NCBI GenBank assembly: GCA_026026165.1 | Contig: JAPEUD010000032.1 | Span: forward strand, 124,001-188,000 | Source: Sarea resinae | Lineage: Eukaryota | Direction: 5' to 3' | DNA length: 64,000 nucleotides | Part shown: positions 46,056-58,140 of the stretch, piece after piece | How positions within the stretch are numbered: position 1 is the first letter of the stretch | Layout of the letters: each line of letters begins with the position of its first letter | The notes under the pieces: model-generated | What the model was told of the DNA's origin: nothing | What the model saw: the letters and a program-made list of their open reading frames with translations, nothing else | Database searches by the model: none | Made by a program: the position numbers and the translations under genes

Positions 46056-47608
46056 GGTGTTGTTGACTTGAGGATGAGAGGATGTGCGAGGCTGAGAGAC
46101 GGTGGCTGCAAAGAGTTCTGCTCGACAATGAGCTGCAGCGAACTTGGTTGACGTGCTGGCTCAGCGAGATGCGGTCGAAGATGGCACGGCAGTCGGGTCA
46201 AACGAGCGACATGAAGCGATCAACTTGACCGGCGGAGTGTGAGGGTGAGATGGAGAGAAGAGAAAGAGAAAGAGGATGGATGGATGGGTGGATAGAAGTA
46301 AGTCACCGCACCGCAAGAAACAGCGTGGATGGCCGATCATGGATCTTCGCGAGGGCACCAGCCAACCATATATGATGGTTCGGTGATGGATGGATCGATA
46401 TTGACGCAATGATGGGGATGGGCATGGATGGCCTCGCTCCAGCTGTTCGTGCCCCGAGTCTCCCGCCCTCGCGCACCCCGGACCCTGCGACGGACAGTCT
46501 GCTCTCTTGTTCCTGTAGGTGGGCATCCGCGATTTGCTCCTGTGCATCCAATAACATGGCACGCCGCACGAAGCTATCACGACGTCCGTGGCTGGGAGAT
46601 GAATTGGCCGCTCTGACGGGGCGAGGTGGCTGGTCGGTCAACGTCGACTAGGGCTCAGCTAAGGGGTCGACGCCGGCCATCGAGGGGCAGACAAGAGACA
46701 ACAAGGAGTAGAGTACGCAGTACGATACGCAGTAGGCCAGTCTCGGGTTGGCTGCGTGTGTTTTGTCAGTGTCCGACTCCCCTGGTACACACAATACACG
46801 CACTATCGATAAAGAAGGAGGCGGAGGAAGCGAATCAGGGACCCATGGACGACAAGTCGCTCGTGTCGGCACCGAAGGACTTCTTCAGCGATGACTAAGC
46901 GAGCATCCATGGCCCGGCACCAGCCACCAGCCACCTTCTTTCTTGTGCCCTAATACTACCTGGTCCTGACTGCTCGTCCTTGACCGCGGTCGCCATCCTC
47001 TACAGTCATCTATCTCGGCGGGTAGCGGAGGGTCGTAGCCTGCGCCTCGACCGTGCCCTCGAGCAGCATATGGATGTCTAATAGTAGACCGCAAAAGGTG
47101 GCTGACGCGGCTAAGCGGGCTTAGAGCTTTAGTATTCGTAGAGGCTTCGTATCTTCGTCGTAGTCCGAGTAGTGGTACTCGTTGTGCTGCGTAGACCGGC
47201 GGTAAGGTGAGAGGCACTCGGTACCGCACCTCACTCTCGACGCTTCTGGCAGTGTCGTCGATGCTTCGGTGCTATCGTTAATAAAAGATCCAGCATCCAC
47301 GGACATCCCAGACACTCATCCATCCCCCACTCATTTCCCATCTTCCAATCCCACCATCACTCGTCACAGGATTGACTGCCCTCTCCCTCAAGCCATACTC
47401 TCTTATCCATAAACCGTAGACGCACGCACGCATCCTGAAGGGATATCGACGGACGACAACGCCACCGCGGATTGGTATCGCTTCGCATCGCATCGCATCG
47501 CATCGCATCGTATCTGTTGCACATAGATAGAGATCTCGGTATCACCGTACATCAACCCCAGCAAGCAGGCCGAGGCAGAGAGGCAGCCATCCATCAACGA
47601 CCGTAGAC

Positions 47609-48132
47609 ATGTCCAAATACGTCCGTCTCCCCCCCACCCCTCCTCTCTCTCTTCTTTCCCTCTCTCTCCCACCTCTCCCCTCTCCCTCTACCAAGACAAG
47701 ACAACACGACACGACACTGACAAGCACCGCCCTCAACAGGACCCGCCGCAAGGCCCACCGCCCAACTACGCCGCCCACCCGCAACAATCCGGCCACACGC
47801 CCGCCGACGGCAGCGGGCCCGCCTACCCGTACCCCTCGTCGCCGCAGCCCGTCTACCAGCAGCAGCAGCAGCCACCATACCAGACCTACGGCTCTCCGCC
47901 ACCGCAGGGCGGATACTATGGCCCGCCGCCGCCGGGGCAGGGAGGGTACTATGGCCCGCCTCAGGGGCAGGCCGGCATGTACTATCAGCCCGGCATGATG
48001 CCACCACAGCAGCAGCAGCAGCAGGGCGGGTACTATGCCCAGCAGAGGAGTGGGGGCGGCGAGGGCGTTTGCGCCGGTCTCTTGGCCGCGCTGACCTGCT
48101 GCTGTTGTCTGGACATGTGTTTCTTGTTCTAG
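47609..48132 (+). CDS. CYSTM (cysteine-rich transmembrane module) Pro/Gln/Gly/Tyr-rich protein; 2 exons (missed by the ORF track)
   Basis: MSKY, intron 47621-47739 (GTCCGT..CTGAC..CAG), then DPPQGPPPNY..YYGPPPPGQGGYYGPPQG..GGEGVCAGLLAALTCCCCLDMCFLF*, a canonical CYSTM C-terminus. Confidence 0.9.
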
Positions 48133-49182
48133 TGTGGTGTGTGTGTGTGCGTTTGGGGGCAAGAGGACCAAGAAGCGGCAGAGGAGAAGGATAGCAAGAG
48201 GAGAATAGGACGAGTGGGCGGTCTCAATAATAATCACCCCTCCGCTCCGAATTCGACGATACCCGGAGCCGTCATTGTGGCATGGCATCTCCGGGCTCTC
48301 AATGGCTCCGAGGCTGTGGCGTCTGGTCTGCTTGGATTCGACTTCCGTCTCATCCCAGTGTTTTCATCTTCCTCTCTCTTTACGCTCGGGCTCTCCATCC
48401 GAATCACTCCAAAGGGACACGGCGAACTACGGCGCAAGGTTTCCCTTCTCTCTCTTCTTTTTTTTTGTCAACTTGGTAGTGAGATCTACTCTGCATGATT
48501 TCTTCCTTCCTTTCTCTCTTTTCTACGGTCTTCTCTTCTCTTGCCAGGGTCTTGGTCTCTGACTTCGCATTGAGATTGCCATCTATCTAATATCTAGCTG
48601 GACCTGCGGGAGATAACTGTAGAAAGCAAAACGAACGACTGGATCAGGGAGATGGTTGTAATTATTGATGAACAAAATCATTCACAATTCACACGTCTGG
48701 TCTGATCTTGATGGTTCTCGTATCAGTGACGGCATAATCGCCGCGTTTGATATACTCAATTGCTATGACGAAGGAGCGCAAGCCGGTGTCTGTATCGTGC
48801 CGCCACTTACCTCTAACGTGTGCGCGCTGGTGAAGACAGTCAGACGTGGACGAGCTCGAACGACGGCGAGAAAAAGAGATGCTGAGAGAGTGGGGAGTCG
48901 GGAGAGAAGGATTGGACTCTCGCCGAACTGAGAAAGTAGAGATGGTGAAAGGAGTGAGTGAGTGGTTGAGGAGTCTTGAGAGAAGATGTCAAATATGGTA
49001 GATATGAAAAGATGGTGATAGAGTGAAAGAGTGAGAGTAGTCTCGAGAGACGGGTTGAGACTCGTTTTAGAAGAGGAGATTGAGGGAGAGTGAGTGGACA
49101 CGAAGCAGACGGCATGAAGCAGACGGCATTGCGCCTGAAACGTAGACAAAGGGACGTGCAATCCAATCCACGTAGTCCGTCT

Positions 49183-50150
49183 TCATCCGATGATGATGGA
49201 TGATGGATCGAGTTTTTTGTGCGCGCTGCGGATGTGCCGCATTCCGTTATCCTTTCTGTTCCACCCGCCTGGTTCTTCCCCCTTGGCAAAATTGCACAGG
49301 GGATCCGGACAGAAGAAGCGCGAGCGGGGGCGGGATCGATGCCTGCGGTTCTCGTGTCGTTTTGGAGCTTGTCTCTCGCGCGACAATTTGGGCGTCTCGG
49401 CGCGTTTCTCGCGTTCGTGCTTGTCGACGCAGTCCATTTTGGGAGCCCTGGAGGTGATGGTCAGATCTTGAGCGCGGTTGGCGGCGATTCCTAGAGAAAC
49501 GGAACGACGCACCCTTTTCTTCGAGGTTGGGATTTCGCACCCGTCGGAGGACCGTCGATGCTGACGGTACCTCGAGCAGATGCTGCCTGCGACGTGACAT
49601 CTTGGGTCATAGACTCATATGCTGAGCTAGACGGACTTGTATAAAAGCTGGCATCCGAAGAGAGACCTGGCGGATAGACGGGATGCGAGGAACCGTCACC
49701 CGGAGAGGTTTCGGGAACTATGTCGGATGCATCTGAATCCCCGAGCCAGGTGACCGGGCGGAAAAGGGGATGCAGTGGCTCTTGGAAGTCGTTGCCCGCG
49801 TTTCCATCAGCTGTTTCGAAATGCGAATTCCAGAATCCTAGGTCACCAAAAGTCAAAGGCAAAGAGGGCGCCAAGGCAGCCAGGGCGTTCCCTGCTGAGG
49901 TGTTAGCATCTCTATAGCACAATCCGAGTAAAGAGACTTCCCAGTACCTTCTAGCAGCTGAGAGGGGGCAAACAATTCGACTTGGCCGGATTGACTCGTG
50001 CTTTGCAGTCCTGCCAACGGGCTCGAGGACTCCGTCTCGTTCAGGAAATCTTCAAAGGAAAAGCCATGATCCGAGGCGGTCGAACAGGGTTCTATTAGTC
50101 GCGGAGCAAAAGGACTCTTATTTGTATGTAGGTGAGAGTGTAGAGGCGTT
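49183..50150 (-). CDS. C2H2 zinc-finger protein A (finger 1 degenerate, finger 2 intact); paralog of 55844-56773; 5' end unresolved, possibly a pseudogene
   Basis: Introns 49895-49947 (phase 1) and 49448-49512 (phase 2). C-terminus FFCPDPLCNFAKGEEPGGWNRKDNGMRHIRSAH. No in-frame ATG in the open frame 49948-50509. Confidence 0.65.
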
Positions 50151-51038
50151 GGATCGGCATCTACACCTGAAGCAGTATCGTATTTGTCGAACCTCCCGGA
50201 ATATCCGCACTTCTCTAACTGTTCAAAAGCTTCGAGGGGTGCGCAGATCCCGGGACGTTCGACAGCATGGTCGGAGTTGTCGAACCTCTCATTACTTTCC
50301 CATCCCTCGAATTGTTGCTCAAAAAGCTCGAAGCCAAACAATTCGAGGGATGGAAAATCAATGAGAGGTTCAACAACTACGACAACGTGGCTTGAATCAG
50401 AACATGGAGTGGAAGAAATATTGGCCAGTCGGAGATCCTCGAGATCTCCGCTTCCTTCGGCCGATAATAAGACAAGAGATGAGAGTGGCCGTCTCAGCCA
50501 GAGCAACAACGATGGTAGACAGAAAAAAAGGTCAGGCAGATAAGAGAGGAGGGCGAAGTGAGGATGAGAGTGTGGAACCGCCCGACCTTTTATGTCCAGA
50601 ATCGTGTCCGGACGGACAAGGCTGAGACGAGCCTCGAATTTGAGGGCCGAGGGGCCGGCACCATTGGCTTATGTCATAATCTATGATCCATGATCTCCTC
50701 TTCTCCTTTCGCCTTTTTACCACTTCTGAGGACCTCATATTCAAGGTATGCACATAGAAACGCAGTCGTAGTAACACTCGCAGTACCCGGACTTCATGTT
50801 CCTTATCCTTATCCCCCGGATTGCGCAGATCAGCCAAGCCATCATGCAACCTCGCACCAACAATACTCAAGCGAGCACAACAAACGACCCCTCCACCTCC
50901 AATCCCCATCCCACCAGGCATCCCACCACCATCCGCCACTATAATAATGCCATCCAAACGCCCACACCCAAAAACCTCACCGCATAGCCTAGACATACAA
51001 AACACTGGCAGCACCGCACCTCACCTCACCTCAGCAGC

Positions 51039-52820
51039 ATGCTGCACCACCCAATCCCGCCTCTCCTGACAGCCCGAGCCCGCGCGCGCGCCGCACAAGC
51101 CTCACCACTGACCATGCCCAAGCGCGCCCATGCCACCAAGCTCCAAACCACAGCCACGCTGGCAAAACGTCCGAAGCCATCGCGGCCACCAGAACCGGCA
51201 CCTCGCCCTGAATCCTCGCCGAGAAGCTCCCCTTCTCCTCCTTCATACGCGGCAGAACTCAGCAGCCCCCAAACCCAAAGCCAAACACAAACCCCACCTC
51301 CCCGCTCTCTCGACAGCCTCACTTCAACTCTGCTCGCAATCCTCATCTCCAGTACCCATGACCCCGCAGAGGACGCGATAGCGGCGTGCGGCGCCTCCGT
51401 GCTCGCGATCCTGCCGCGCCGGCCCGCCGACTGCCTGAGGCTCGCGCGGACGAAATTGCACGTCTATCCGTTCAAAGAGGTGCCGCTGTGCTGGCGCCGG
51501 CTGTTCGAGGACGCCAGCCTGATTCTAGCGCTACGGCTTATCCGGCGCCGACTAGGTCTGGTGGTAGATGTGGAGGCGGAGACGGCGGAGGAGGAGGAGG
51601 GGGAGGAGGGGGAGGATTATGTGGTGGTGGAAGGACAGGAGAGAGAACTTTGCCGAAACGAGGATATACAGGGAAAAGGGGAAGAGGCTCAGGGAGAGAA
51701 GAAGGCCGGAGGAGAAGCAGACTGGTTGGATGAGGTCGTGCGGGTGTTGGACATGGCCATCATCATGTCCGGGGCACCGAAACGGAGAGAGATGATTGAA
51801 GATCTTCTAGCTGCGCTGGAGGAGGATTTCGACTCTACTACTACCACCTCTAACACTACCACTACGACCACCTCAACGTCCTCTTCCACCACCGTAAGCG
51901 CCTCCGCCCAGCTCCACATCGACCTTTTACCCACAGACCCCATGGCTGCCTCTCCACGCCTGCAATACCCTGTTCCGCACCAGCCGGCACCATCCCTCCA
52001 AGCCTTTCAGACGCACCTCGATACCCCGTCCTCTCTCGGCGGACCCACGCCGCTCCATATATCTCACGCTCTGGACCACTGGCCCGCGCTGGACGAGCGG
52101 CCCTGGAGCTCAGTCGCGTATCTGCTTCGCCGGACCTTTGGCGGCCGCAGACTCGTGCCCGTGGAGGTGGGGCGGGCGTACACGGATGAGGGATGGGGGC
52201 AGGAGATCGTGACGTTTGGAGAATTCGTGGATCGCTACCTTGTAAAAGACGAAAACAATGATGGCAAAGACGGAGAGCAAGAGGCCACGCCAAAGAAGAC
52301 AGGTTACCTGGCCCAACACGACCTCTTCTCCCAGATCCCGAGTCTGCGGAACGATATTTCCATTCCGGATTATTGCTATACCACCCCTCCTTGCCCACTC
52401 CCCAACACGCCGCTGGAATCAAAGACCATCCAGACGCTAGATACGCCCCTTTTGAACGCGTGGTTCGGCCCAGCAGGCACTATCTCTCCGCTCCACACAG
52501 ATCCCTATCACAACATCCTCTGCCAGGTCGTGGGGAAGAAGTACGTTCGTTTGTACAGCCCCTTGGAGACATCCAAGCTCTATCCGCGAGGTATAGAGGA
52601 GGGTGGGGTAGACATGGGAAACACGAGTCAGATCGACATCGACCTCGGCGATGATGGTGCGGAGGTGGAGGTCGATGAGGAAAAGTTCCCGCTCTTCAGG
52701 GGGGCAAAGTATGTGGATGTCGTGCTGGGAGAGGGAGAGTGTCTTTATATCCCTGTCGGCTGGTGGCATTACGTTCGGAGCCTGAGCACGAGTTTTAGCG
52801 TCAGCTTTTGGTGGAACTGA
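51039..52820 (+). CDS. JmjC-domain 2OG-Fe(II) oxygenase, JMJD5/KDM8-like, single exon
   Basis: [135 protein letters not shown], with the HxD...H triad intact. Confidence 0.93.
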
Positions 52821-53133
52821 ACGAAACGTCCGAAGAGGAAGAAAATCTTACCAGGCGTGGCTGGAAGCAAACATTTAAAGCTATTTAAAGCTTGACTTGG
52901 CAAGTCGTAAGGCGCAAGTCTCGGAATAGGCGCAAGGACCGAGGTCTTCTGTTGCGAAGAAGCAGAATGAGGTCCTCGAGACATGAAAATGCTTCGCGAC
53001 CAGTCTGACCATCGGCTCGTCATTCCGAGACTCTTCACTATGAAATCATAGCCGACCCGCGGTCATACGTCGGAAACACCAAGGCTCACAGCTGTATAGA
53101 TGCTCAGTCGCGACTTGCTCGGGACGAGGCCGT

Positions 53134-54690
53134 TCAAGTTTTGCTGCAGATGGAGCCACCACGGCGCGATAAATTTCCTTCTGCCTTGACGGATTCAGGA
53201 GTCGCCTCTGACTTCTTCTGGGCCCATGGCGGCTCGCCGTCGTCATTAAACTCCGCCCACTGAAAGAAAGAGCACCTACATTCTGGTCAGTGAACGTTGG
53301 GCCCAGAAATTGTCGCTTTTCGACCTACCCCTCTTTACCTGGCGTGTACCCGGCATGACACATCCACATGTACCGGCCAAAGATTGTCTTCTTCTTTTGA
53401 ACACACCGCAAAACCGTCGGCACATTACATTTACACTTCGGTGTATACCTAGGGTGAAAGCTATCTCGATAACACCGGTAGGTAATGTTGATCCTCTTTT
53501 TCCCGGCGATAGGGTGCGGGTCGATAGCGAGAGATGGATGTATGCTATGTTTCCATTCCTCCTGCATTTCGGCGTGCATCACCAGAAGCGAGTTATGAGG
53601 TAAATGTATCGAGATTTGGCCTTCGGCGTCTGCTCGTTCGTCGTCTTTCTTGCCGGCGTCCCCATTTTGGCCGACGTTGTCGGAGGTGGCCTCTTCGCGG
53701 GGTATGACCTTTCGGACTCTGAATTCCCTGCTAACGCCCAGACTGAGACTCCCGATGATAGCCCTCGGGCCAAGATATGTGAGTTGATCGGAGTGATATC
53801 CAACGCTCTCACCACCACCGTCGTAACAATTGACAAAGGCTGCGTTGGGTATCCATTCTTTTGGTGATTGATACTTTAGCTTTTGGCCATTGGCATAGTG
53901 CGATTTACTTCGCCGGGCTATTTCTTTGTTGACGGTGTGTTGAACCACTGTAGAGACCTGGCGCAGATGAGGAGTAAGCTGGCGGACGTCCTAGAGTCAC
54001 AGGTTAGATAATATACCAGTAGAGCGGATTTGGGGATTCTTGGCTCACCCCGAGATAGCTGCCATTATAGAGATATTCAGTTGTTTGCTTCCGCTGCTCG
54101 TCTTTTGAGTCCACGTAGAAGCATGAGGAGTGAGGGCTCTCGACCACATTATCGAAGAGCTTGAATCTCATCTTCCCGAAAGTCGGCGCCTCAGCGAGCA
54201 TCTCCCTCAGAAGATCATCCGCCGTGTCCGCGGGGAGGAAGTTGTGGATGATCGAGCATGGTGTATGTGCCGCGACGTCTGCGGGCGAATACAGATGAAG
54301 CGTCTTGCCCTTCTTCGTCAGCGGCTTCGGGCTAGGTGTGCCATGGGCATAGCTGGCTGCCTTGTCTCTGGAAGAGAGGGCGAATCGCGTCAGAGATGAT
54401 TGGTATGACAAGCTGCCGAGAGCCGCCTTCTTGCGGGGCGGTCGTGAAGAGGGCCCGTCGTGTCGCGAGGACAAGGCCTCGGAGGCCGCCTCAACGGCGC
54501 CGTCAAAGGCAAGAAGCACATCCAGGAGCAGCGATTGAGGCGAGCGAGGGTGCAGAGATGCGAGGATGCCGAGCTTGAAGTCGGTGGATTCCTCGTCGAC
54601 GGAGCCGATGGGGGTGTTCTTTTTGGTCCATTGTGGCTTTTCTAGACACGAGGGCGACCGACGCCGTTTGCGCTGGATGAAGGCGTCCAT
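53134..54690 (-). CDS. CUE-domain + AlkB-family 2OG-Fe(II) dioxygenase + GRF zinc finger protein; 3 exons
   Basis: ESTDFKLGILASL..LLDVLLAFDGAVEAAS (CUE-like); NAAFVNCYDGGGESVGYHSDQLTYLGPRAIIGSLSLG; HNSLLVMHAEMQEEWKHSI; RINITYR; GRF CKCNVPTVLR..GRYMWMC..GCSFFQWAEF after splicing; stop TGA at 53134-53136. Confidence 0.92.
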
Positions 54691-55843
54691 GACGGACTGG
54701 ATGGGAGAACCGGGCTTTTTCACATTGTAGATGGTGGATCGCGCATACTGGAGCTGCCCTCAGGGTGTCGTGGGTGACGGCACCGACATCAACACGCCTG
54801 CAGCTGTTGGCGATAAGTCGATAACACTACTCGGCATGGGTTCTCTCAATTCTTTAGTAAGCAAGGACGAGAGCTAGGCTGCATCCCGTCAAGCCAGCAC
54901 CGCGTACGCGTCGCCAACCCCAGATGATCGCCGAGGTGGACTGCGCAGTCAGTAAACCAACATCGGGAGCAATAGAGGACCTTCGAGCATGCATTGGATG
55001 CATTGTCACCGGATGCTTCTGCTTCCTTCTGTCGCTTTCGATCCGACCTCAGAATCAGACAAACATGACATGTCATGCTCTTCGACCGCGAGGAGACGAT
55101 GTCACGGCAGAGCCTCATCCGAAGACAGACAGCCCGTCACAGCCCTCCACTGCCTGTGGGATGAGGGCCGACGGGCGGTGCGATCCAAGACCTCCTGATC
55201 TGGCTGCGCTGGTCGGCTCCCCGACCAATGTCGAGGCTGCAACATCATGCACGGCTCTCGTTCAGGACGGCCAGGACGGCCAGGACGGCCAGGCCTGATT
55301 CTGCAGAGGGATACGTCACTCTTTGGTGGTCGCCTTATTCGCCCAGGGCGGTTGACCTCAAGACTGAGGTTCATCGACCGCCAAGCCTGAGGTCAGAGGG
55401 AGAGCTCCGGCTTCCCCGTCATCGTCTTCATTAAGGCCGCTCGCTGCCACCCCAATCCCCTTAGGATTCTCCAGCCACATCTCATTCTCTCCCTTCGGAA
55501 CTGTGGCTGGTATAGAGCATACAGTCCATCACCGCCTGCACAGTGCACCGCCACGATCCGTGGTGCTCACACTTGATCCGCCCTCCGTATACACGCGCCG
55601 TATACATCTGAGCCTCGTTCTTTGCCGTATATTGTCTCTGACACATCCTCGAAGCCGTCTGCGGTCAGAGGTATACCTGAAGGCGAGGGACTGCCCAGTC
55701 TTTGACCGACTTTCATTACGTCTTGGTAACATCAACCTTCAATGTAAATCATTTCTGTTTGGTCCTTTTGCCCTGGGAGATGGAATGGAAAGAAGCTCAA
55801 ATGTCTACAGTCACTGCAAGGGATTGTTGGCGTGCTGCTGGTC

Positions 55844-56773
55844 ATGGCCGGCTCTCTTCCGGGTAGCTCATTGTCCAGGGATGTCGGATACGCCGGCGGG
55901 TCTGCCGTGATCCCCGAAGACGACGAATTTGAATGGCCCAATGATACTTTCTTCAACGACCAAGCATTGTACCTAGACCAGTCGGGCGGGATTGAAGCTA
56001 CCGACCAGATAGGGCAGAACCAATCGGTCGTTAGTACCCCGGAGCCTAAGCATCAAGAAGGTACGGGAGTGATTGATTCTTCAGAAGTCGGGAGGAATAA
56101 ATGCTGACGGTCCCCAGATGCTGACTCGATCTTTCCATGGGAATACGGTTGGCCCCATGGAACTTGGTCTGGCGATCTCCCCGGACTACGACTCGACTCG
56201 TCGACTCCATTGATCGGGCCCGATGAGCTGACGGTGCATTCGCTCTCGCCGAGTACGGCTTCTTCGGGCATCAATCGCCCCCTCGGCCAATCTTCTAATT
56301 ACAGCTCCTTTACCAGCCTGACCAGCCTGGGCCAGGAGTCAAGCAATCGAGTTGCATCTCATGACCCGAAATTCAATGACCCGACCTCCACGGGGCAAGC
56401 AACGACGGCCTCTGATGCTGCTAGTACACGACCGCGTTGTCCAGCCGACCAGCTATCGGAATCAAGCCTGCAAGAAATGTTCGTATATTGGACAATATCA
56501 GCCATTCGTTCTAACATGCACGCCTCCAGAACACCTCCTGAGTCTGTCCCAGTCGACTCCTTTGAGTGCGCCGAATGCGGCCGCACATTCCAAGACAAGC
56601 ACGGCCTCAAACGGCACAAGCTCACGCACGGCGCCAATCGCTTCGTCTGCCCGGCGCCATTTTGCAAGTACGGCGTCGACGGCGAGAAAGGCGGGTTCGC
56701 GAGGCGGGATAACGGGAGGCGACATCTTGCGTCGCTGCATCCGGGATTGGAAGTCCCGCTCATCGAGATGTGA
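55844..56773 (+). CDS. C2H2 zinc-finger protein B (two intact fingers); 3 exons
   Basis: Introns 56061-56117 (phase 1) and 56479-56529 (phase 2, 51 nt, stop-free). FECAECGRTFQDKHGLKRHKLTH and FVCPAPFCKYGVDGEKGGFARRDNGRRHLASLH. Confidence 0.85.
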
Positions 56774-57069
56774 TGATTTGTTGGTTGGAGACCTGGGCTA
56801 GTTTGAGCGTGGTCTGGTTCGAGGTATAGTCTAGCTCGAAGTATAGCCTAGTCCGGCACATGGTGTTTATTGGTCATCAGCGAGTGCCGCTCTTCGCCTT
56901 TCAAAAGCCAGCGCCTCCAAATGAAGCCGCGAGAACAAGAAAAATACCCTCCAGTCAGCGTTGAAGAGGACATCGATGCTCGGGACTGATTCGGCGCGAT
57001 TTCTTCTTCTCTTTTTCTCCTTGTTCGTCTCACGACACCATTTTAGAATCCTAGCATTTTAAACAAAAG

Positions 57070-58140
57070 CATTGTTTTCTCTCTCTCTATCTTTCTCTCT
57101 CTCGCGTCCGAGACGTAATGTAACCACACGCTCCTAGCCTCCTATCCTCCTATCCTCCTATCCTCCTACCCTGATCAGCCCTAGACACCCAGAGCAGGAG
57201 GAACAGAAGTAGAACAACCTTATTTCCTATATCATACCAGAGCACCTAAAATACCGACACAAACATGAATACTAATCAAGACATAAACATAGCCCTCTTT
57301 CCCCCACCCCGTACCTAAAAGGTGGGCTTTTTCCTTTAACCCTCTCTCTAACTAAAAAGAAAAGAAAAGAAAAGAGGATAGCAGCTGTAGCAGCCTCTTT
57401 ACCTATCTGTCTATCTGTTTGCCCTGCGCTATAAGTCTAGCTCTCTCTCTAATTTAGATATCTATCTATCTATCTATCTAGCTCTCTCTTCTCTCTCTTA
57501 CACAACAAACACACGCAACTCTAAAATCTTAGTATGTGTTCTATTATAATGATACTATTCTCTGTTCTCTTAACAAGTGTTTCTTCTTTCTTTTCTTTTC
57601 TTTTCTTTTTCTTTTTCTTTTCTTTTCTTTTTCTTTTTCTTTTTCTTTTTCTTCTAGAGTAGAGGAAGAGAAAGAGAGAGAAAGGAAAGGTGTAATTAAT
57701 TAGGATTACTTATTTCATATGTAGAGAGAGAGTGTGTATGTTAAGTAGTATGTAGAAGGTATATAGATAGAGTAATAAGAAGAAGAGTAAAAAGAAGAAG
57801 AAGAAGAAGAAGAAGAGAATAATATCATTTCTCTAGACTTCTATTCAGATGTCTAGATCGAGGTATAATCACCGTCTACTACGTATAACTCATTATAGCT
57901 ATCGACCTAAGGCACCTACCTGCCATTTACTCTATATCTTGCATGAGTATTGATATTTATTTGTGTATCGATATCTCGCTCTCACTCATCTATTTCCCAC
58001 TCTATCTAAGCTATATCTACACAATCTCGGAAGCTAGGCGCTAAAAGAGCCGCCCCTTTTCTCAAGATAAGAGCTATCACTTTGCTCTAATAGCTATATG
58101 TTGTTATTTGTATATTACCTACCTACCTACCTACCTACCT
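57070..58140. repeat. AT-rich simple-sequence island: (CT)n, (CTATCCTC)n, (CTAT)n, (CTTTT)n, (AAG)n, (CTAC)n
   Basis: Direct sequence reading; the ORF track shows no ORF within this interval. Confidence 0.85.

Follow-up and report, generated by a model that had tools for sequence, protein, structure and literature searches.

Two C2H2 zinc-finger genes, here called gene A and gene B, lie 5.5 kb apart on opposite strands in the window, a stretch of 64,000 nucleotides from Sarea resinae contig JAPEUD010000032.1. They flank the genes for a Cupin_8/JmjC protein and a 2OG-Fe(II) oxygenase, and a gene for an NRPS-like reductase lies beyond gene B. The features are given below with their positions in the window.

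49183..50268, minus strand: gene A (database protein P0001, 303 amino acids), whose joined exons reproduce P0001
50268-50220 (putative), 50166-49947, 49890-49513 and 49447-49183, minus strand: exons of gene A
50219-50167 (53 nt, putative), 49946-49891 and 49512-49448, minus strand: introns of gene A
49339..49419, minus strand: relic of finger 1 in gene A, H-E-R-E-K-R-x15-H-x4-H (read with the codon table)
49318..49422, minus strand: basic segment KHEREKRAETPKLSRERQAPKRHENRRHRSRPRSR, which holds the relic and abuts finger 2
49219..49311, minus strand: finger 2 of gene A, C-x4-C-x19-H-x4-H, four ligands present
50270-50383, no strand assigned: near-perfect hairpin, immediately upstream of gene A's annotated ATG
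50988-52820, plus strand: Cupin_8/JmjC protein
53325-53990, minus strand: 2OG-Fe(II) oxygenase (2OG-FeII_Oxy_2)
55844..56773, plus strand: gene B (database protein P0002), exons 55844-56060, 56118-56478 and 56530-56773
56561-56629, plus strand: finger 1 of gene B, classical, FECAECGRTFQDKHGLKRHKLTH, C-x2-C-x12-H-x3-H
56648-56740, plus strand: finger 2 of gene B, long-loop
58409-61066, minus strand: NRPS-like reductase (AMP-binding, PP-binding, NAD_binding_4)

Two side observations concern the surroundings of these genes. Where the 2OG-Fe(II) oxygenase gene lies, an RNA contig joint at 53379-53542 leaves out 162 nt; its AA..GT borders (plus strand) are non-canonical and its shorter side has only 24 letters, and it may stem from another organism or be an artefact. 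An open frame at 47527-48132 (plus strand), QQQQQPPYQTYGSPPPQGGYYGPPPP, is rich in Gln, Pro, Gly and Tyr and matched no Pfam family, and its product looks like a low-complexity, prion-like protein.

In the database, P0001 is labeled a hypothetical protein, from a metagenome-assembled genome of Sarea resinae. The frame of gene A runs through 303 codons and four exons without a stop, and in all four exons the annotated frame gave the best codon score, much as in gene B. Introns 1 and 2 of gene A share position and phase with their counterparts in gene B, and both are intact, as the original prediction stated. This long open, coding-like state suggests a protein with one finger plus a basic segment rather than a dead gene.

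Two public sequencing runs were used, both as contigs: the probable source DNA run (X1) and a metatranscriptome of decaying wood (X2). The DNA contigs covered only 50615-57070, which is outside gene A. The metatranscriptome held 32% of the sampled words, with pieces 90-99% alike to the window, and it is from a close relative, another strain. In one of its contigs the match ends at 56478, and 13 of the 14 letters that follow agree with the window from 56530 onward; intron 2 of gene B is therefore spliced, and the real protein has 273 amino acids. The database entry P0002 (290 amino acids) retains this 51-nt in-frame intron (56479-56529) as coding sequence, FVYWTISAIRSNMHASR. A further contig joint, GT..AG with 67 nt skipped, removes 55744-55810 and marks an intron in the 5' untranslated region of gene B, 33 nt before the ATG at 55844. 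Gene B starts at 55844, since the exon before that intron contains an in-frame stop (inspected by eye). We conclude that the metatranscriptome is at least partly truly spliced RNA.

The paralog with an intact classical finger, on which the original prediction relied, is present: finger 1 of gene B, FECAECGRTFQDKHGLKRHKLTH, occupies 56561-56629 on the plus strand and has the ligands, the spacing and the profile match of zf-C2H2 (PF00096; E 2.5e-5, 24.9 bits, just below the cut-off of 25.2). At E<=1 it matched 172 PDB sequences, including PRDM9, a consensus-finger design and ZNF568 chains, with PRDM9 as the best (5.9e-18). Finger 2 was likewise found intact as claimed, with all four ligands of C-x4-C-x19-H-x4-H in both genes, and its flanking motif is also kept in gene A; no Pfam profile matched finger 2 of either gene. 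The proteins of genes A and B are 29% identical overall (MAFFT), and significant likeness was confined to the last 57 amino acids (BLASTP, 39% identity, E 2e-11). Within the 34-codon block of finger 2, pS was 0.67 (dS about 1.7) and pN 0.36 (dN about 0.49), giving a dN/dS of about 0.29; 17 of the 34 residues are identical, and 9 of those 17 are specified by different codons. From these comparisons of codons, finger 2 has been held by selection in both copies. The values of pS and dS indicate that the duplication is old, and since the synonymous sites are saturated, the two paralogs assign no direction to single changes.

Where a first finger would be expected, the last exon of gene A reads H-E-R-E-K-R-A-E-T-P-K-L-S-R-E-R-Q-A-P-K-R-H-E-N-R-R-H (minus strand, 49419-49339). 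The codons named in the original prediction were recovered with the codon table: CAC at 49419-49417 (His), CGC at 49413-49411 and at 49404-49402 (both Arg), TCG at 49383-49381 (Ser) and CCA at 49365-49363 (Pro), each of these five being one C>T change from a permissive residue, and CAC at 49356-49354 and CAT at 49341-49339 for the two His residues. The accompanying claim that the finger is broken only by T-to-C changes did not hold. Only the two Cys/Arg codons differ from gene B by a single T/C (TGC/CGC). The other three are more distant, with three bases differing at Phe11 (TTT in gene B, CAC in gene A) and two each at Phe20 (TTC and TCG) and Leu26 (CTC and CCA), and the proposed one-step changes reach permissive residues, not gene B's own residues. 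The spacing is also altered, R-x2-R-x15-H-x4-H in the relic versus C-x2-C-x12-H-x3-H in finger 1 of gene B; gene A has three residues more than gene B in the linker that leads to finger 2, and at least three small indels separate the two finger-1 regions. C2H2 fingers in general have the spacing C-x2-4-C-x12-H-x3-5-H.

The relic has no Cys ligand, and Arg (CGC) stands at both Cys places in the alignment of the original prediction. Whether both His ligands are retained, as stated there, varied with the aligner, and the three programs used gave three different residue matches in this region. BLASTP placed His1 of gene B on the second His of gene A and His2 on an Arg; MAFFT placed Cys1 on Arg15, Cys2 on a Thr (ACG) and His2 on an Arg; and a global BLOSUM62 alignment placed Cys2 on Thr18. 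In the last two alignments, the Cys places are thus occupied by Arg and Thr. The residual likeness of the two regions is weak but present, with a score of 24 versus 12.5 ± 4.6 for shuffled sequences and with 54 of 2000 shuffles matching or beating it. A nucleotide alignment with free end gaps scored 4, as did or exceeded 487 of 1000 shuffles, and is uninformative. Judged by zf-C2H2 (PF00096), the relic lacks the Cys/His ligand set, the spacing and the profile match. No C2H2 family was listed over it by hmmscan at E<=10, where the sole row was zf-C2H2_12 (E 2.1, residues 65-78), and the whole of P0001 gave 0 Pfam families. The last exon of gene A had no significant match in the PDB (best, one chain at E 2.1). 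AlphaFold2 single-sequence models were too poor to use (exon 3 pLDDT of 59.2 for gene A and 45.0 for gene B).

The composition of the region explains why so many of its codons lie one C>T change from a finger residue. The 43 codons between intron 2 and finger 2 include 11 Arg, 5 Lys and 3 His, with 7 of the Arg residues encoded by CGC, and this basic segment is the one part of gene A in which the codon score showed no frame preference. Any CGC or CGT Arg codon is one C>T change from Cys. Conversely, TGC has two transition neighbors that change the residue, CGC (Arg) and TAC (Tyr); since there are only these two and the segment became basic, the two Cys-to-Arg changes need no special mechanism. 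In addition, 17 of the 43 codons are hydrophobic or one C>T change from hydrophobic. We searched codon shuffles of the segment for a restorable pattern in a loose form, [Cys or CGY]-x2/4-[Cys or CGY]-x12..15-H-x3..5-H, and found it in 819 of 20,000; the exact observed spacing arose in 37 of 20,000, and gene A itself lacks the canonical form with x12. A caution for the reading of raw sequence follows. Because CGC and CGT are one step from Cys and about 40% of the codons of a segment like this are hydrophobic or one step off, an Arg-rich stretch beside a finger will often look restorable, and spacing needs to be checked besides ligand identity before editing is proposed.

Contigs from the metatranscriptome covered 48740-49143, 49289-49440 and 49514-49744 in the region of gene A and left 49935-50508 uncovered, an interval that takes in the annotated ATG, the putative 53-nt intron and the ACG at 50147-50149. 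On the plus strand, a C-to-U change of the proposed kind would be seen as G>A. All five proposed sites fall within the contig at 49289-49440 (record 10), which departs from the window by a total of one mismatch and one absent base; the genomic reading therefore holds for at least four of the sites, the Cys2 codon among them. None of the 8 G>A places tallied for the whole run falls in 49289-49440. The records shown for this run sum to 56 mismatches versus 48 tallied, and mismatches near contig ends were probably omitted from the tally. Sites 49404, 49382 and 49364 lie at least 36 nt from the contig ends and have no tallied G>A, and they are thus unchanged; for sites 49419 and 49413, at 21 and 27 nt from an end, the only constraint is the total of one mismatch. 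A finger cannot be restored unless 49404 (Cys2) changes. The RNA check of the five finger sites therefore gave no C-to-U change in this run, which is one environmental sample of another strain under one condition, present as consensus contigs at a depth of 2.5, from which variants that are rare or confined to one stage would be missing.

No splice joint was reported for the introns of gene A among these contigs, and the RNA nature of the gene A contigs rests on the library label together with the spliced gene B contigs of the same run. Two contig ends, 49440 and 49514, are close to the exon ends at 49447 and 49513, which from one study is no proof of splicing. The missing base of the contig over the relic is at 49360, in a run of four A, at a depth of 2.5, and may be a contig error. 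If real, the gap would shift the frame of that strain into a 206-codon open reading frame (48840-49460, minus strand) that skips finger 2. Differences between the metatranscriptome and the window numbered 1 in 383 nt for gene A (records 10 and 11), 9 in about 420 for gene B and 32 in 657 for the JmjC gene. A reading of the lower number in gene A as selection was set aside, because metatranscriptome contigs may come from different strains.

Searches for relatives of gene A by word-based methods, phmmer and two metagenome scans found no ortholog. Word-based searches of the middle length class with exon 2 of gene A, the open reading frame of gene B and P0001 returned only the query proteins themselves (1 of 102, 1 of 348 and 1 of 1216 candidates, respectively), and of the pattern matches in the two metagenome scans (103 and 160), none was confirmed. 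With phmmer, P0001 matched only itself and P0003 (187 amino acids) among 1.84 billion representatives. The match to P0003 (E 2.3e-5) is limited to residues 234-294 of P0001, that is, the tail of the relic and finger 2. P0003 contains two copies of a module made up of a finger followed by a GRFYCPHPxC long-loop finger, and the leading finger of its first copy is also without the Cys pair; loss of the leading finger may be recurrent in proteins of this kind. A protein atlas gave generic C2H2 leads only; its rows naming the zf_C2H2_17 families (PF26176 and PF26177) scored 0.87-0.88, and 13-23% of their members carried these families. Neither family was listed at E<=10 by hmmscan for exon 3 of genes A and B or for P0001, and the Pfam copy used may lack them.

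We favor an ordinary loss of finger 1 at the DNA level in an old paralog, with the mRNA read as encoded (probability of about 0.9). Gene A is a paralog that separated from the two-finger C2H2 gene B long ago and has diverged strongly from it, and finger 1 would have been lost from the DNA of its lineage. Both Cys codons of finger 1 would have turned into Arg codons, the commonest kind of single-base change from TGC, while at least three small indels altered the spacing and hydrophobic core positions were replaced. What remains would be the Arg/Lys/His-rich segment directly before the intact long-loop finger 2, and in the mRNA, read as encoded, editing would repair nothing. The fallback offered in the original prediction, decay or selected loss of one finger, is supported. 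Given the long-kept open frame and the selected finger 2, we infer that the loss at the DNA level has probably left a gene that is still used, its product having one finger and, N-terminal to it, a basic extension. By analogy with the GAGA factor, the basic segment might act as a nuclear-import signal and/or as an extra nucleic-acid contact.

The same loss at the DNA level could instead have occurred in a gene that is a transcribed pseudogene, or is becoming one, and yields no working protein, which we regard as unlikely while giving it some weight. This possibility draws on the start of gene A. The statement that gene A has no in-frame ATG was correct for the contiguous frame, in which 271 open codons contain none, and incorrect for the database protein, in which P0001 starts at the ATG at 50268-50266 after removal of the 53-nt intron 50219-50167. 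The start is thus rescued only by a putative upstream exon that belongs to the database model, and the donor of that intron is weak (GTTAGA). An upstream intron in gene A is nonetheless plausible, because RNA proves one at a comparable site in gene B; from the end of that intron to intron 1 the distance is 83 codons, compared with 73 codons for the counterpart in gene A. At the foot of the annotated ATG lies the hairpin at 50270-50383, which has arms of 47 nt (89% complementary) and a loop of 20 nt, and its RNA fold has an energy of −77.9 kcal/mol (z −12.9) that 0 of 200 shuffles reached. The 16-nt core of the hairpin occurs within the window only at its two places; the hairpin could be a small foldback insertion or a regulatory element, and if transcribed it would hinder initiation. 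Also compatible with a pseudogene are the base missing from the relative's RNA contig upstream of finger 2, the failure of the searches described above to find orthologs of gene A, and the lack of a Pfam family for any part of it. Several observations argue against a pseudogene: the 303 codons have stayed open over four exons despite the saturation of synonymous sites between the two genes; the signal of the coding frame equals that of gene B in strength; finger 2 keeps its four ligands and its flanking motif, with 9 synonymous codon differences among 17 identical residues; and the one-base gap lies in a homopolymer of a contig with a depth of 2.5.

A directional force, either GC-biased gene conversion or some other T-to-C bias, is a very improbable driver of the loss of structural residues. 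In the finger-2 block, sites with C in gene A and T in gene B outnumber the reverse by 7 to 2, and CGC is the commonest Arg codon of gene A (9 of 19), as such a force would have it. The purines of the same block run in the opposite GC direction, with A in gene A and G in gene B 10 times versus 2 for the reverse, which is AT-ward, and GC3 is lower in gene A (0.566) than in gene B (0.62). GC-biased T-to-C conversion, named as a cause in the original prediction, is not supported by these values, and there is no gene-wide GC-ward drift in gene A. Moreover, two paralogs with saturated synonymous sites give no direction, and the spacing was changed by indels, not by substitutions.

Conditional C-to-U editing or programmed deamination, by which CGC would become UGC at 49413 and 49404 and the hydrophobic positions would be mended to yield a working finger 1, has almost no likelihood. 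It gains from the one-step distance of the five codons, from a restorable pattern that is somewhat rarer than chance (the 819 shuffles above), from the single condition sampled in the metatranscriptome, and from C-to-U changes reported in basidiomycete transcriptomes; in the relevant passages of PMC7306014 these are reported only in Polyporales, and strain or allele differences confound the reports. It runs against the single mismatch in all over the five sites, and the restored product would still be C-x2-C-x15-H-x4-H, which is non-canonical, not the x12 of gene B or of the Pfam model. The coding strand of the 81-nt relic contains 26 C's, and the five proposed ones share no common context (GCA, ACG, ACG, TCG and CCA). 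The same C>T change would create a stop at 49371 (CAA) or at 49359 (CGA), the latter in the same AAACG context as 49404, and at 49356 or 49341 it would destroy the His ligands. The editing described for filamentous ascomycetes in passages of PMC7306014, and likewise in PMC4817773 and PMC10776026, is A-to-I and occurs in the sexual stage. That site-specific C-to-U changes of this ascomycete nuclear mRNA in an unsampled condition, such as fruiting bodies, turn both Arg residues into Cys and switch on a long-spaced first finger is exceedingly improbable; if true, it would change the DNA target of the gene A protein.

With loss of finger 1 from the DNA as the preferred reading, gene A adds one more case of a duplicated C2H2 gene with a degenerate finger. 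Its biological weight is small: the two small C2H2 genes form a pair specific to their lineage, and one of them has lost a finger.

Among known systems, the classical C2H2 finger (PF00096) of two-finger fungal transcription factors fits finger 1 of gene B. The relic in gene A is at the homologous place, after the same intron, but differs in having no Cys ligand, x15/x4 spacing and no match to the model, and finger 2 of both genes differs by its loop of 19 residues instead of 12. Restorative editing in filamentous ascomycetes, as presented in parts of PMC10776026, PMC4817773 and PMC7306014, is A-to-I, belongs to the sexual stage and mostly corrects stop codons. It shares with the editing proposal the idea of a DNA defect that is corrected in the mRNA under some condition; gene A would need five C-to-U changes, none of which was seen in the RNA of the metatranscriptome.

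There is also a likeness to the "degenerate" zinc fingers that are flagged in protein databases and are discussed for ZNF750 in a section of PMC10465944. Like these, the relic is finger-like, stands at the expected place and departs from the CCHH consensus in both ligands and spacing. The ZNF750 finger proved to be a real CCHC zinc site, according to the same section (PMC10465944), whereas the relic can draw on two or three His but on only a single Cys in its vicinity (C6 of exon 3), from which a four-ligand site is not evident in the sequence. In the GAGA factor, DNA is bound by a domain in which basic regions lie ahead of one C2H2 finger (Omichinski 1997, cited in a passage of PMC10465944). 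Gene A resembles it in architecture only, in that its sole intact finger follows immediately on a strongly basic stretch; the finger itself differs by its long loop, and the likeness would be an analogy of working, not membership.
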